This document shows, piece by piece, positions 49,639-62,125 of a stretch of 64,000 nt of DNA; position 1 is the first letter of the stretch; the number at the start of each line of letters is the position of its first letter. Under the pieces are notes generated by a model that was not told the origin of the DNA, did no database searches, and saw nothing but the letters and a program-made list of their open reading frames with translations. This stretch comes from a virus (Duplodnaviria; Heunggongvirae; Uroviricota; Caudoviricetes), in the IMG/VR virus record IMGVR_UViG_3300027631_000003; one strand, written 5' to 3'. Both the position numbers and the translations under genes were made by a program.

Positions 49639-49680
49639 ACTGTTTTTGTTTATTTGTTAGTTATTATTATTTATTATGTT

Positions 49681-49700
49681 GTAAATGTAACTTGGAAACC
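49681..49700 (-). promoter_or_regulatory. Early promoter-like motif (CTGG/TTGG variant)
   Basis: + strand reads gtaaatgtaacttggaaacc, upstream of the AT-hook gene. Confidence 0.5.
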
Positions 49701-49709
49701 TATTGGAAC

Positions 49710-49955
49710 CTAATCTTTTAAATTAACGGCTCCATATGCTGTTACTATGGATCCGAACACTAGAACGATTACCCAATCGGTGTCTTGATTATATAGGAAC
49801 CCGTAACATGCAATTACTACTAACGTTACACCTAATTTTAGAAGCAATGATGCACTGTTTCTCTTGGTTTTAGCCTGTTTCTCGGCTGCGATCTTAGCTA
49901 AACGATCTTTGTCATCAGCCCACTGTTCGAATTGTCTTGATTGTTTTGTCAACAT
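49710..49955 (-). CDS. Small two-TM membrane protein
   Basis: 81 aa. Promoter motif at 49993..50010. Confidence 0.45.
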   Translation of the reverse strand: MLTKQSRQFEQWADDKDRLAKIAAEKQAKTKRNSASLLLKLGVTLVVIACYGFLYNQDTDWVIVLVFGSIVTAYGAVNLKD

Positions 49956-49992
49956 GTCTTTTTATTTAGTTAGTTAATTATTTATTATGGAG

Positions 49993-50010
49993 TAAATGTA
50001 ATCTGGAAAT
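49993..50010 (-). promoter_or_regulatory. Early promoter-like motif
   Basis: + strand reads agtaaatgtaatctggaaat. Confidence 0.5.
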
Positions 50011-50013
50011 TGG

Positions 50014-50187
50014 TTAATCCCTATCAATCCATTCGGCTATGTACTTTATTTCCTCAGGTGTTAGGTTATCCACCATCTCATCTAAGCGATCCGCCTTAGC
50101 AATGGTTGTGTAACCGATCTGATCAATGTCTGAATTGATATCCCACTGTAATTTCTTGACTTCGATGCACTTTTGAATGTTAAGCAT
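50014..50187 (-). CDS. Small hypothetical protein (57 aa; below ORF-track cutoff)
   Basis: ATG at 50187 preceded by the conserved leader and the promoter motif at ~50210..50228. Own translation gives MLNIQKCIEVKKLQWDINSD.... Confidence 0.4.
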   Translation of the reverse strand: MLNIQKCIEVKKLQWDINSDIDQIGYTTIAKADRLDEMVDNLTPEEIKYIAEWIDRD

Positions 50188-50216
50188 GTTCGTTTGTTTT
50201 TATGTACATAGTAAAG

Positions 50217-50459
50217 TTAATCTAGAAACTTGCTATTGGGTATGTTTCTTAAGATATCCTCCTTTTCTACTTTCCATAAATTACCTTTGAAGTCTACTAC
50301 ATGAACAGTAACTGGATTTACCTTTTGGATAACACCTTCTTCAACTTCAGTTCCCCATCCTATATTCTGTAATTGAACCCAATACTTAAATTGAATTCTT
50401 TCTCCTAATGCGATTTTTGGTTGTGCGCTTGCTGCTTTCTTGATGATTTGAGTTGCCAT
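50217..50459 (-). CDS. Small hypothetical protein
   Basis: 80 aa. Motif at 50486..50502. Confidence 0.45.
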   Translation of the reverse strand: MATQIIKKAASAQPKIALGERIQFKYWVQLQNIGWGTEVEEGVIQKVNPVTVHVVDFKGNLWKVEKEDILRNIPNSKFLD

Positions 50460-50516
50460 GTTATTATTTATTTGTTATGTATGGAGTAAAATTAATTAAG
50501 ACATTCATTACTTACT

Positions 50517-50672
50517 AATATCATAATAAGTAACACCGTTTATTAAGATGAAATTGTCGTGTCTACATACACAGTAACTGTAGTGTAAGTACTTAGTTCC
50601 GTTAATTGTCTTAACAGGTACGATGTTTGGGTTTGAATTTTTAATGTGGGCGTTCTTGATTGTAGCTGACAT
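50517..50672 (-). CDS. Small Cys-containing hypothetical protein (~51 aa; coordinates approximate)
   Basis: ATG at 50672 preceded by leader and motif at 50705..50723. Own translation gives MSATIKNAHIKNSNPNIVPVKTINGTKYLHYSYCVCRHDNF.... Confidence 0.35.
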
Positions 50673-50725
50673 ATTTTGTTTGTTTAGTTAATTATTTATT
50701 ACAGGGTAATGATAATCTGGAAATT

Positions 50726-50883
50726 CTATTGATCCAATTTATCTAATTCCTTAATCAACTTATCAATCAGCGCTTCAGATGTTTTAACCATTTCACCCCA
50801 TCCTAAGGCTTTATAGCGTTCTAGACGGTTCATTGCGTCCTCGATTTGTTGTACTTTTAATTCGAATTTTTGATCGTTAGTCA
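50726..50883 (-). CDS. Small hypothetical protein (~52 aa; coordinates approximate to +/-1 nt)
   Basis: ATG at 50883 preceded by leader and motif at 50907..50923. Own translation gives MTNDQKFELKVQQIEDAMNRLERYKALGWGEMVK.... Confidence 0.35.
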
Positions 50884-50928
50884 TATGTTAATTTATTTGT
50901 TATATAGTAAATATAATAAGGACAAAGA

Positions 50929-59725: not shown

Positions 59726-59985
59726 TATTCGCCTCGATTACCTGCTTTTTGGAATTTCTTATAATCAGGAATACCCTCGAAATTACGTTGCCAATAATCG
59801 AAGTCCTTCTCGCTCATTGGCATTCCGAATACATGATATTCTTTTAATTTGCGATCGCCTTGTGGGATTAATGCAGGTCCGTCTGAATTGTGTAGTTGTT
59901 TTTTACCACCACGATCTAAATAATATCCGATCGTTCCGTCTGCTGTTTTAAATTTACCGTACTTTAATTTATTGTACTTTTCCAT
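59725..59985 (-). CDS. Hypothetical protein
   Basis: 86 aa. Confidence 0.4.
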   Translation of the reverse strand: MEKYNKLKYGKFKTADGTIGYYLDRGGKKQLHNSDGPALIPQGDRKLKEYHVFGMPMSEKDFDYWQRNFEGIPDYKKFQKAGNRGE

Positions 59986-60110
59986 AACTTATTTTTTAAT
60001 GTTCCACTTTTGTTCTAAATAATCGTAATAACGTTGTGTTTTATTTCCATTATATAGGAAATATACTAAATGGATATCGATCCATAATTCAATTTTACGT
60101 AGTAACTGTT

Positions 60111-60836
60111 TCATCTTTTATATGTATTAAATTTAATTTCGCCGTTATCCGTACTAATTTGTTCTAAAATCATATACTGACCTGATGTACCTAAAGTATC
60201 AATGTAGTAGTAACGACCACCTGTTGATTTACCTTCAGTATCAATCTTACCTTGTGTAGTATGACCTACAACTTGGATAAATTGATCACGTAATGTATCA
60301 CGATTTGCTTGTTGTAATGAATAGGGACGAATCCAAATTGGAGATGATATTTTACTATCACCATATGGATCACGGCCTGCGAATGAAAATACATTTGGGG
60401 TATATTCCCATAAATCATTTACTTTCTCTTCAACTGATTCCCATCCTTCCCATTTATTAATCTTTAACCAATCATAACTAACACCAGCATGAGTAAATAA
60501 GAAATCACCCATTTGATAACACATTTGCATGTGTTGTCTATTTTCATATAATAACTGCTCAATGGCGGGTCTTGCCCCACTTTGATATCCTGAATAATAT
60601 TGAGTAACACCACGCATGTAATGGTAATCGTGGTTACCAATCAACATAATTACTTCAGATTGGCCTGATTGTTTCCAATCAATGATTTCCTGAAAGTTAT
60701 GCATCTGCTCAACTGCGGTATTATCAAATGAATCAAAGTAATCACCAATGAATATAACTCGATCTGGAGATTCGCTTGCTACGATTTGCTTCCAATGTGG
60801 GCGACCATGTGTGTCGCCTAATATAACTGTTTTCAT
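60111..60836 (-). CDS. Calcineurin-like metallophosphoesterase (Ser/Thr phosphatase-like)
   Basis: Motifs GDTHG, GDYFD and GNHD are present in canonical order. Confidence 0.75.
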   Translation of the reverse strand: MKTVILGDTHGRPHWKQIVASESPDRVIFIGDYFDSFDNTAVEQMHNFQEIIDWKQSGQSEVIMLIGNHDYHYMRGVTQYYSGYQSGARPAIEQLLYENRQHMQMCYQMGDFLFTHAGVSYDWLKINKWEGWESVEEKVNDLWEYTPNVFSFAGRDPYGDSKISSPIWIRPYSLQQANRDTLRDQFIQVVGHTTQGKIDTEGKSTGGRYYYIDTLGTSGQYMILEQISTDNGEIKFNTYKR

Positions 60837-60838
60837 AA

Positions 60839-61057
60839 CTATATATGTAAATGGTCTTTAATGTTTTGAATATGCTTACACACTTTAGTACGTCCACATT
60901 GGAATGCTAAACAATTACATTTCAATTGGTTATCTTGATTTCGTACTACCTTATAATCTTGGTATTTACCTTTTTTGTCTTTGGATCCCATCACTATATA
61001 AGTGATTGTCCATTTTTCAGTTGGTATCTGTGTTGATTTTGGTCGTCCTCTGGGCAT
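60839..61057 (-). CDS. Small SWIM-type zinc-finger protein
   Basis: CNCLAFQCGRTKVCKH gives CxC...C.....CxH. Confidence 0.45.
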   Translation of the reverse strand: MPRGRPKSTQIPTEKWTITYIVMGSKDKKGKYQDYKVVRNQDNQLKCNCLAFQCGRTKVCKHIQNIKDHLHI

Positions 61058-61202
61058 CTGATAGTTGGTTTTGTAATTGACGTATTTCTAATTGTAACAT
61101 TTTATATTCATTTGAGCGTAGTCCATCTCTACTTGCCAACAATATTCTTGTTGACTGATTGTGTAAATTCATCAGTTGAGTAATTATGGTATTTATTTCC
61201 AC
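61017..61202 (-). CDS. Small hypothetical protein (overlaps neighbour; start uncertain)
   Basis: 61 aa. Confidence 0.3.
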   Translation of the reverse strand: MEINTIITQLMNLHNQSTRILLASRDGLRSNEYKMLQLEIRQLQNQLSDAQRTTKINTDTN

Positions 61203-61210
61203 TGCTCATA

Positions 61211-61405
61211 TTATATACACATATAAATATAATGGGACATATCTCTATGTCCCTTATGTTTTACTTGATATAATTTATCTCGTTTGCCTTTACCTGTTCG
61301 TTGCGTTGTCATTCTAGATATGATGTGACAACTTTCACCTATTGATAATGGTTCCGGTTTGAATTGATCTAAAATTTCTGCAAATGTTAATTTATTCGTT
61401 TTCAT
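61211..61405 (-). CDS. Small hypothetical protein
   Basis: 64 aa. Motif at 61406..61427. Confidence 0.4.
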   Translation of the reverse strand: MKTNKLTFAEILDQFKPEPLSIGESCHIISRMTTQRTGKGKRDKLYQVKHKGHRDMSHYIYMCI

Positions 61406-61427
61406 GATTTAAAGATAATAAGGAAAT
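61406..61427 (-). promoter_or_regulatory. Early promoter-like motif
   Basis: + strand reads gatttaaagataataaggaaat. Confidence 0.55.
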
Positions 61428-61428
61428 C

Positions 61429-62046
61429 TTATTTATCCAAACCTGCTAACTTACCTAAGCGCTCATACATTGAAGCATAGTCACGAGGTACTTCACGGTT
61501 CGCTTCCTCTTCCTCATAATCGTCTATCATTGCTTTATCTCTATCTGATAATGGTTTATTAGGTAATGCTTTATCTTCATCACTTAGATGATCAGTATTA
61601 TCAGGTTCGATTTCATCCATTGCATCTTGAGCACGAGCATAATATTCACTTGCTTTATCAAGGTATAATTTAGTTGCTTGATCATTGATGGTTGGATCCA
61701 TAGCTAATGTTCTATATTCATAGAATTTATCCATTAAAAACTTTATATAATCAGCTGGACTCATTTCATCTTTAGCATCAGGGCCAAATTCTTCTATTAC
61801 TTCATTAATTTCAGATGTTAATGGAGATAATTCATACCAATATAACCAACCTGTATCTTCATCGTAATCATCTATTTCATCTGCTTTTAGACCTAATTTA
61901 GCTAATCCAGTGTTTAATCCATTTAAATCTCTTTGACGATTCCAATATCCAGTTCTGATATATGGTCTTTCACCTTGTAAACGATCAATTTGAGCATTAG
62001 GTTCTAATTCTAAAACGCCTTGTATTTGTTCTGGAGTTAATTTCAT
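61429..62046 (-). CDS. Highly acidic early protein (possible DNA-mimic/anti-restriction type)
   Basis: 205 aa with about a quarter Asp/Glu. Early promoter motif at 62064..62086. Confidence 0.4.
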   Translation of the reverse strand: MKLTPEQIQGVLELEPNAQIDRLQGERPYIRTGYWNRQRDLNGLNTGLAKLGLKADEIDDYDEDTGWLYWYELSPLTSEINEVIEEFGPDAKDEMSPADYIKFLMDKFYEYRTLAMDPTINDQATKLYLDKASEYYARAQDAMDEIEPDNTDHLSDEDKALPNKPLSDRDKAMIDDYEEEEANREVPRDYASMYERLGKLAGLDK

Positions 62047-62063
62047 TTTATTATTTATTCATT

Positions 62064-62086
62064 TGATATAAATATAATCAAGAAAG
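62064..62086 (-). promoter_or_regulatory. Early promoter-like motif
   Basis: + strand reads gatataaatataatcaagaaag. Confidence 0.5.
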
Positions 62087-62125
62087 GGGAACCTAAGTTC
62101 CCCTCAATCAAAATACTAACATTAA

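Follow-up and report, generated by a model that had tools for sequence, protein, structure and literature searches.

Promoter-early stem-loop (PeSL) cassettes of the T4-type coliphages RB49 and phi1 are strong host primary-sigma promoters that occur in about 50 copies, most of them before small ORFans of hyperplastic regions and a few within conserved modules, beside plastic or non-structural genes; they are often joined to a terminator stem-loop, carry a translation start signal at their 3' end and bound the insertions, deletions and replacements seen between close relatives (Arbiol et al. 2010, PMC2839356). The promoters of phages that infect Flavobacteriia are almost unmapped, and a literature search on the host consensus together with 'phage' returned no title on phage promoters among the 10 of 11 papers listed. 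For the Cellulophaga crAss-like phage phi14:2, genes g070, g075, g108 and g110 are named as having middle promoters, primer-extension 5' ends were reported in the phage, middle and late transcription was rifampicin-sensitive in vivo and attributed to the host polymerase, and Escherichia coli sigma-70 holoenzyme transcribed two of the promoters in vitro (10.1101/2020.03.07.982082). Promoters of the Bacteroidota sigma-A (sigma-ABfr) consist of a -33 TTTG and a -7 TAnnTTTG element (Flavobacterium johnsoniae, PMC6847099; F. psychrophilum, PMC9723704); the -7 box lies at -12 to -5, the transcription start site (TSS) follows 4-5 nt further on, the -33 element is weak and a few per cent of mRNAs are leaderless (PMC6847099, PMC9723704). 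Here we compare with these systems a repeated cassette, predicted to join a promoter to a translation start region, that occurs in a 64,000-nt stretch of phage DNA (IMG/VR record IMGVR_UViG_3300027631_000003), referred to below as the window.

Copies of the cassette in the window

On the gene strand the repeated block reads TTTC(C/T)(T/A)(A/G/T)ATTA(T/C)(A/C)TTTA-nnn-(T/C)(G/A)TA and is followed by an A-rich leader and then ATG. All 22 positions at which the original prediction had placed copies fall inside copies of the motif on the minus (gene) strand. A 26-nt position weight matrix (PWM) trained on the window's own sites, with a cut-off of at least 14 bits, found 23 sites on the gene strand and none on the plus strand, where two sites reach 12-13.6 bits; first-order Markov shuffles of the window gave about 0.2 sites at 12 bits or more, and 0.5 Mb of loci from other phages in the family contained only three weak matches. 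An initial 17-mer search (up to four mismatches) had already recovered the same set before the self-trained matrix was used. With 23 sites against 0.2 expected, the repeat is real, strand-specific and intergenic. Two copies come in addition to those listed earlier, one at 51267-51242 (-) and a weaker one at 48808-48833 (+). The claims that the cassette precedes at least 25 early genes, and nearly every gene from 49.6 to 62.1 kb, proved too generous: 20 cassettes lie in that region and three elsewhere, and the 20 stand before 20 of about 37 open reading frames (ORFs), the remainder being in operons of up to eight genes. These 20 cassettes, within 12.5 kb, precede ORFs of 52-249 aa, almost none of which matches a family. 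The genes behind the three cassettes outside this putative early block are non-structural: primase plus exonuclease in one case, an oxidoreductase in another and a small ORF in the third (Table 1, which includes a second motif, ATATTTATA, considered below).

We regard it as probable that the cassettes are strong Bacteroidota-type promoters of the early class, that the host RNA polymerase (RNAP) reads them and that each is fused to a translation start region that lacks a Shine-Dalgarno (SD) sequence. The host enzyme with its primary sigma would bind a weak T(T/A)G at -35 to -33 and, across a 20-nt spacer, TA(T/C)(A/C)TTTA at -12 to -5. The first base transcribed would be the conserved purine of Y-R-T-A, which lies at motif position 22, 4 nt past TTTA. 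The transcript would open either with AUG (leaderless, at about 5% of sites) or with a leader of 16-40 nt, in which A at -3, -6, -12 and -13 would recruit the ribosome in the Bacteroidota way. The block at -21 to -13 may act as an 'extended -7' contact that offsets the weak -33 element and marks the early class, its reader being the host sigma or a phage factor. Because it is repeated about 20 times in 12 kb, the cassette of 26-60 nt may in addition be a substrate for homologous recombination by which small genes are inserted, deleted and swapped, a role like that of PeSLs. The observation behind the original prediction was essentially right, and its interpretation is supported as far as sequence can test it.

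Table 1. Cassettes and second-motif copies in the window, with motif position 1, start codon, matrix score and local context.
Feature	Span	Strand	Motif position 1	ATG	PWM score	Context
Cassette	62044..62099	-	62085	62046	21.4	Terminator hairpin 62105-62084 abuts
Leaderless cassette	61403..61440	-	61426	61405 (motif position 22)	24.3	Heads 8-gene unit ending at terminator 58577-58552
Cassette	58509..58568	-	58554	58511	29.4	TTTCTT overlapped by terminator 58577-58552
Cassette	58196..58251	-	58237	58198	31.4	Contains stop codon of upstream ORF (TAA, positions 6-8)
Cassette	57142..57198	-	57184	57144	25.9	
Cassette	55892..55963	-	55949	55894	28.7	
Cassette	55465..55524	-	55510	55467	30.9	Hairpin 55532-55508 abuts
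Cassette	55215..55278	-	55264	55217	18.1	
Cassette, best consensus match	54753..54808	-	54794	54755	32.4	
Cassette	54511..54566	-	54552	54513	29.9	
Cassette	53827..53898	-	53884	53829	21.7	Duplicated in L012
Cassette	51756..51811	-	51797	51758	26.9	5' half in L012 chimera
Cassette	51498..51560	-	51546	51500	26.4	
Cassette (newly found)	51225..51281	-	51267	51227	26.1	3' half in L012 chimera; upstream of 53-aa ORF and tRNA-Ser (50985-51057, -)
Cassette	50882..50938	-	50924	50884	24.5	Terminator 50946-50930 directly upstream
Cassette	50670..50737	-	50723	50672	26.0	
Cassette	50457..50517	-	50503	50459	24.1	
Cassette	50185..50242	-	50228	50187	26.5	
Cassette	49953..50023	-	50009	49955	28.6	
Cassette	49636..49712	-	49698	49638	24.2	
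Leaderless cassette, late half	21565..21602	-	21588	21567 (motif position 22)	17.8	Serves DnaG-type primase 20626-21567 (Pfam DNAG_N/Toprim) and exonuclease 19838-20629 (PHROG), both (-)
Cassette	12814..12875	-	12853	12816 (true ATG; Rossmann GxGxxG follows)	20.4	Hairpin GGCCCAATCGTAAGATTGGGCC (12875-12854) directly upstream; serves FAD/NAD oxidoreductase (PHROG)
Cassette	11427..11481	-	11467	11429 (106-aa ORF)	26.1	
Weaker opposite-strand copy	48794..48833	+			13.6	Kept in L012, L018, L020, L026; points into GC-rich ORF-free island
Second motif ATATTTATA	first bases 62326, 45543, 42846, 34380, 22378, 10585, 9546, 7198, 5318	-				Lies before ORF starts that include the portal, baseplate/tail-block ORFs and ORFs beginning 45520, 42834, 34352, 10546, 9523, 5291

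Anatomy of the putative promoter, leaders and start codons

Positions are numbered from the -7 box of F. johnsoniae and F. psychrophilum, so that motif position 1 is -21, TA(Y)(M)TTTA spans -12 to -5 and position 22 is +1. Conservation was counted over a pooled set of 143 unique sites from the window and its close relatives, which includes orthologous copies and was picked with the matrix. The -7 box of this set has T-12 in 142 sites, A-11 in 143, T-8 in 135, T-7 in 143 and T-6 in 142, with G at -10 in one site and at -9 in five, and all 23 window sites fit T-12 A-11 H H T-8 T-7 T-6. Missed by the original prediction is an upstream element, T(T/A)G at -35 to -33, with T-35 in 18 and G-33 in 17 of the 23 window sites (p = 4e-6 and 1e-9); the pooled counts are 113/143 and 104/143, and both positions lie outside the site-finding matrix. 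The spacer between this element and the -7 box is exactly 20 nt. The proposed resemblance of TA(T/C)(C/A)TTTA to the Bacteroidetes sigma-A -7 element is borne out by its place 20 nt downstream of T(T/A)G, the -33/-7 geometry described for the hosts (PMC6847099, PMC9723704). Promoters of the sigma-70 type were rejected, as a scan of the window for them found no enrichment (75 found, 86 expected). Downstream of the box, Y-1 and R+1 each occur in 20 of the 23 sites and are followed by T+2 and A+3; this Y-R-T-A had also been overlooked. The TSS had been expected 5-8 nt after TTTA; the distance predicted here is 4-5 nt instead.

The cassettes thus described resemble Bacteroidota sigma-A promoters in T-12 and A-11, in the lack of G at -10 and -9, in T-8, T-7 and T-6, in the weak -33 element, in a start 4-5 nt past the box (predicted here), in the length of the leader and in the leaderless share. 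They differ from them in having A for the near-invariant G-5, in the invariant C-18 and T-19 where the host is AT-rich, and in a site-to-site conservation that is far higher. A search of the literature returned nothing usable on structures of the Bacteroidota holoenzyme with promoter DNA.

The leader had been described as a spacer of 8-12 nt followed by AAATAAAYAAAC. That description was overstated: ATG follows TTTA at anything between 4 nt (the two leaderless cases) and 43 nt, and the leader is an A-rich low-complexity tract, not a fixed box. Its characterization as A-rich and SD-less stands, however, since none of the 21 leaders contains an SD-like word and A is enriched at -12 (20 leaders), -13 (18), -6 (16) and -3 (13, with C in seven). 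The leaders are 62% A and 5% G and contain a single internal ATG. A at -3, -6, -12 and -13 are the positive determinants of initiation in F. johnsoniae (PMC6847099), and the SD-less initiation regions of Bacteroidota have few extra AUGs near the start (Baez et al. 2019). The ATG offsets have their mode at motif positions 40-43, or fall at 52-62, with just one site (28) across positions 25-35. At seven sites in the lineage, representing at least five different genes, the ATG lies exactly on motif positions 22-24, the predicted +1; two of these belong to the window, one being the ORF that begins at 61405 and the other the gene of the DnaG-type primase (21567). A leaderless mRNA would give just this picture, an ORF whose first base is the predicted +1, and the share of such sites, about 5%, matches the leaderless share of 5.5% in F. 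psychrophilum (PMC9723704).

Sister lineages and possible recombination joints

With a GC content of 31% and every long ORF on the minus strand, the window encodes a baseplate wedge protein, a T4-type terminase and a T4-gp20-like portal. Among isolates the closest, and the only cultured relative, is Flavobacterium phage vB_FspM_immuto (immuto), a 160-kb myovirus that infects Flavobacterium sp. LMO8, with 59% portal identity and the same gene order (small-gene block, phosphohydrolase, baseplate, fibres, primase/exonuclease, terminase, portal), and no deposited phage matches the window at the DNA level. The window therefore represents some 40% of the genome of a phage, not yet in culture, that is related to a myovirus of Flavobacteriia, which agrees with the Flavobacteriia-type host first proposed. 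Assignment of a host by the motif, or an origin of the motif in a host genome, was rejected: a degenerate 24-nt cassette pattern gave 96 single scattered matches and zero arrays in 185,579 species genomes. The phage family is abundant in metagenomes, the phosphohydrolase adjoining the early block having at least 596 relatives in IMG/VR loci.

The window-type cassette occurs only in close relatives with at least 79% protein identity (6-18 copies each in L010, L012, L013, L014, L021 and L026) and in contigs recovered by exact DNA pattern (L004, L005, L007 and L009). It is absent from relatives at 59% identity or less and from immuto, 150 kb of which contain no site for the window matrix; the presence of the same cassette in immuto or any deposited phage was rejected after megablast, blastn-short and matrix searches all proved negative. 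Immuto and five metagenomic sister lineages each have a repeated conserved cassette of their own, with 10-23 copies seen per lineage, of which no description was found in the literature searched. These cassettes read aaaAGTTGC-N-TTCn followed by TAT(A/C)TTTAGGTATCAATAATTAAAAC in immuto (L002, 60-77 kb), TTTGGCC-N-GATGT followed by TATATTTA in L033/L037, TTAGGC-N-AACA with TATATTTA in L039, GTCGATG-N-TTCG with TATGTTTA in L086, TTAGGC-N-ACAT with TATATTTA in L076/L087, and cTTGG-N-GTTCG with TATATTTA in the L041 group. TA(Y)nTTTA is common to all six sister lineages, and TTG or TAG has its G 21 positions before the T of TA in all except L086, where the G of the upstream element GTCGATG is one base off register. 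Because TA(Y)nTTTA and TTG/TAG are shared and the flanks differ across lineages, the -33/-7 core geometry is family-wide and the flanks are lineage-specific.

Immuto resembles the window in the genome position of its cassettes (23 copies in the small-gene block upstream of phosphohydrolase and baseplate genes), in its TTG-N20-TA(T)(A/C)TTTA geometry and in the A-rich leader; it differs in a strong AGTTGC -33 box, the TTCn flank and a GGTATCAATAATTAAAAC leader. In phi14:2 we read TTG-N20-TAnnTTTG upstream of g070, g075, g108 and g110. These too are promoters of a phage with a Flavobacteriia host, with an extended multi-part motif and the TTG-N20 geometry, and for g110 and g070 the ATG lies at or a few nt from the predicted start. 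Unlike the window cassettes, however, they keep G-5, lack the TTTCC block and belong to the middle or late class, the early genes of phi14:2 being made by a virion RNAP; no such enzyme was found in the window, where the 2063-aa protein matched no RNAP in PDB sequences, Pfam or PHROGs. The window lineage and its sisters provide seven naturally replicated sets of 10-23 units, each of a predicted strong promoter plus leader, with a common -33/-7 geometry, and hence a comparative data set on which positions the Bacteroidota primary sigma reads, including -5 and -18. They may also supply a list of expression parts for Flavobacteriia, where E. coli signals fail.

Position -5 is A in 141 and G in two of the 143 pooled sites, whereas G-5 is nearly invariant in F. 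johnsoniae host promoters (PMC6847099). A-5 is also found in immuto and the five other sister lineages. Immuto DNA has fdPreQ1 in place of every G (PMC10516641). The bipartite motif was counted in three phages against a Markov expectation: in immuto the TTTA form occurs 51 times (13 expected) and the TTTG form nine times (8 expected); in phiST, an unrelated Cellulophaga phage in which all G is replaced by 7-deazaguanine, the counts are 20 (5.5) and eight (3.6); and in phi14:2, which has no homologue of immuto DpdA in the phage collection at E <= 1e-10 and for which no report on DNA modification status was found, they are seven (6.4) and nine (2.4). These counts, from three phages only, are suggestive of the hypothesis that the family-wide A-5 could have arisen as it adapted to 7-deazaguanine DNA. 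When IMG/VR was scanned for DpdA, no contig of the window lineage was among the results and the loci found carry no window-type cassette; phage 11b has too few promoters to inform on A-5 versus G-5. PhiST (L267, 1-50 kb), which encodes its own RNAP, has a repeated host-type promoter, TTGT-N-(G)TATCTTT(A/G), with A-5 in about 12 copies and G-5 in three near the left end.

When the window was compared by blastn with nine close relatives, 60 of the 110 ends of homology blocks in 49.6-62.1 kb lay no more than 15 nt from a cassette, where chance would give 13.4 and the highest count in 2000 trials was 25; these zones cover 12% of the region. Several of the differences from L012 have a cassette at the joint. 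L012 lacks the window gene 55267-55467, the joint lying inside a cassette, and has an extra 105-aa gene between two copies of cassette 53884. At L012:5446 there is a chimeric cassette, identical as far as TTTACG to window cassette 51797 and then, starting with TGTAAAAAATAAAA, to window cassette 51267, and the two window genes that lie between these cassettes are missing. The mosaic joints, like the anatomy of the cassette and its pattern of conservation, are direct observations.

Terminator-like hairpins abut four cassettes, whose TTTCTT serves as the T-tail, and a further one precedes the oxidoreductase cassette (Table 1). Nine of 22 cassette upstream regions fold at -8 kcal/mol or below, compared with 16% of shuffles, and most copies have no stem-loop; stem-loops appear to be only a facultative part of the cassettes. 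In several sister lineages a GC-rich stem-loop occupies the -33/-7 spacer (5 of 23 copies in immuto, 8 of 18 in the L041 group), as in PeSLs. The window cassettes are like PeSLs in presenting a repeated host-type early promoter (predicted here) before small ORFans in a plastic region, in bounding indels and replacements between close relatives, in having a few copies inside conserved modules and in ending in a translation start region. In contrast with PeSLs, the predicted promoter has the -33/-7 architecture of Bacteroidota where theirs is -35/-10, an A-rich leader without SD (or a leaderless start) stands where they end in a Shine-Dalgarno sequence, stem-loops are in the minority (four to five clear hairpins among 23 copies) and there is an invariant spacer block at -21 to -13. 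The cassettes would be evidence for promoter cassettes as recombination joints outside the proteobacterial T4-type phages.

The block at -21 to -13 and alternative readings

The block TTTCC(T/A)(A/G)AT at -21 to -13 includes C-18 and T-19, present in 143 of the 143 pooled sites and as invariant as A-11 and T-7, while neighbouring positions vary (C 84 and T 59 at -17; T 97 and A 39 at -16; A 76, G 34 and T 31 at -15) and -22 to -32 carry no information. This position-specific pattern argues for base-specific selection, in preference to passive homogenisation. Since the promoter logo of F. johnsoniae is AT-rich around -18 (PMC6847099), the block is not a known host element. The view that the TTTCC-AATTA extension lies outside the host consensus is therefore upheld, by the invariant C-18 as well as by the differing flanks of the six sister lineages. 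As the sister lineages share the -33/-7 geometry and each has a different flank, the block is lineage-specific. Candidates for its reader are the sigma or core of the host enzyme, with the block as an 'extended -7', an activator from the phage and a repressor that shuts the promoters off.

A second motif, ATATTTATA(A), shares the -7 core and has neither the -33 element nor the TTTCC block. It has 12 copies on the gene strand and one on the other strand (3.5 expected), each 12-58 nt before an ORF start, and two of the copies lie inside early cassettes. We consider ATATTTATA a candidate late-promoter class. The presence of early cassettes at non-structural genes and of ATATTTATA before structural genes fits two temporal classes told apart by their flanks.

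Several points weigh against the reading of the cassettes as host-read early promoters that double as recombination joints. From sequence we infer that transcription starts at the cassettes, where and how early it does so and what reads the block, and with this the function of the cassette. The counts inside the 26-nt block are biased upwards, as the 143 pooled sites were matrix-selected and include orthologues. Conservation of the -33 element is weak, at about 75% for two positions, A-5 departs from the near-invariant G-5 of the host (PMC6847099), and C-18 is at odds with a host logo that is AT-rich around -18, so that a factor beyond plain host sigma-A may be needed. The host promoters used as the reference are those of F. 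johnsoniae and F. psychrophilum, which may not be the host of the window phage. With regard to recombination, block ends cluster at intergenic regions in any gene-wise mosaic, so that the breakpoint count alone is no proof of recombination within cassettes, and such recombination is demonstrated by the chimera, a single clear case.

It could be argued that the cassette is read by an RNAP of the phage or virion. This candidate was rejected: the 2063-, 1494- and 1046-aa window proteins have no RNAP match (the 2063-aa protein was compared with PDB sequences, Pfam and PHROGs), and the first of these, whose gene (22378-28569) adjoins those of the primase and exonuclease, is probably a fibre, its neighbours being baseplate and tail genes. 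These scans cover the window, about 40% of the genome; the motif embeds a host -7 box. A tentative proposal, which we rate as having a low but real chance of being correct, is that the invariant TTTC (-21 to -18) is an undescribed 'extended -7' element of Bacteroidota-type transcription, recognised either through domain 3 of the atypical primary sigma or by a factor that the phage supplies. Such an element would allow strong initiation where the -33 is poor and -5 is A, and would set the early class apart from the candidate ATATTTATA late class, whose core is the same.

An unlikely alternative, though the best placed of those considered, is that the cassettes are middle-type promoters at which the host polymerase needs a phage specificity factor, either a MotA/AsiA-style activator or a phage sigma, that reads TTTCC(T)AAT. 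Such a factor would account for a block that is as invariant as the -7 core, that differs between sister lineages sharing the -33/-7 core and that departs from the AT-rich -18 of the host logo; and, as the block-less ATATTTATA precedes structural genes, flanks could encode timing. In T4 middle promoters, however, the MotA box replaces the -35 element, whereas here a -33-like element is kept at the canonical distance. No sigma, RNAP or known activator was found among the scanned window proteins, and the annotation of immuto offers no credible one (one small ORF is labelled RNA polymerase subunit N). The genes served resemble the first host-takeover set of small ORFans, and if a phage protein were needed the first genes would require another transcriber.

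The invariance of the block could instead have been imposed on it. On this account, which strikes us as rather improbable, the block has no function of its own and hitch-hikes on the -7 box while recombination or gene conversion keeps the copies alike. Cassettes do recombine, as the L012 chimera and the joints at cassettes indicate, and drift with homogenisation would give each lineage its own flank. Concerted evolution of this kind would be expected to leave a smooth decay from the core; conservation is position-specific, with C-18 and T-19 fixed and -17, -16 and -15 free, and -22 to -32 are unconserved although conversion tracts would carry that region too.

We think it very unlikely that the promoter is a plain -33/-7 one and that TTTCC(T)AAT is an operator at which a phage or host DNA-binding protein shuts off early promoters at the middle/late switch. 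Co-ordinated early shut-off is common in large lytic phages, and a single invariant short word does stand beside the polymerase site at some 20 putative promoters that form one class, while the candidate late class lacks it. The block is neither palindromic nor repeated, unlike the TTAGTCA-TT-TGACTAA boxes at 51826-52130, and no candidate binder was identified; an operator would in any case be compatible with host-read early promoters and not opposed to them. Finally, it is scarcely credible that the cassette is an RNA-level signal, be it a translational enhancer or a site near 21/22 at which long early transcripts of several genes are cut: although it is strand-specific and 5' of genes, and a cut at 21/22 would also yield leaderless AUGs, there would be no reason for T(T/A)G exactly 20 nt upstream, for a box identical to the host's -7 element or for a bipartite geometry that recurs in phi14:2 promoters and six sister lineages, and terminator hairpins right upstream of several copies would leave little read-through RNA to process.

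The surroundings of the cassettes contain further features. A tRNA-Ser gene (anticodon printed by ARAGORN as aga) lies between the 53-aa ORF of cassette 51267 and the terminator hairpin 50946-50930, and is probably co-transcribed as an early gene. A GC-rich island at 48850-49010 (+), with 59% GC against 31% for the window, contains no credible ORF; 1-nt indels in relatives argue against coding, and the island shows 75-92% conservation across 16 close relatives, while distant ones retain part of it. It is preceded on the plus strand by the early-type cassette at 48794-48833 and by a canonical TATATTTG box (48855-48862). A structured non-coding RNA was rejected for 48850-49010, which has no Rfam family, a minimum free energy z-score of -1.86 and covariation no better than shuffles; the island could be a non-coding RNA, a packaging signal or an origin. 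In the ORF-free stretch 51800-52260 (a 500-nt region), which lies just upstream of cassette 51797, five copies of a 16-20 nt imperfect palindrome, TTAGTCA-TT-TGACTAA, occupy 51826-52130; the region is conserved in relatives, at about 90% in L012, and the copies look like an operator or iteron array. Repeats made up of T5-7 and then GT/AG (TTTTTTTAGTACA, TTTTTTTGTCATA, TTTTTTTGTTAGCA and similar) cluster at 49000-49060 (+) and 51980-52280 (-), both of which are ORF-free.

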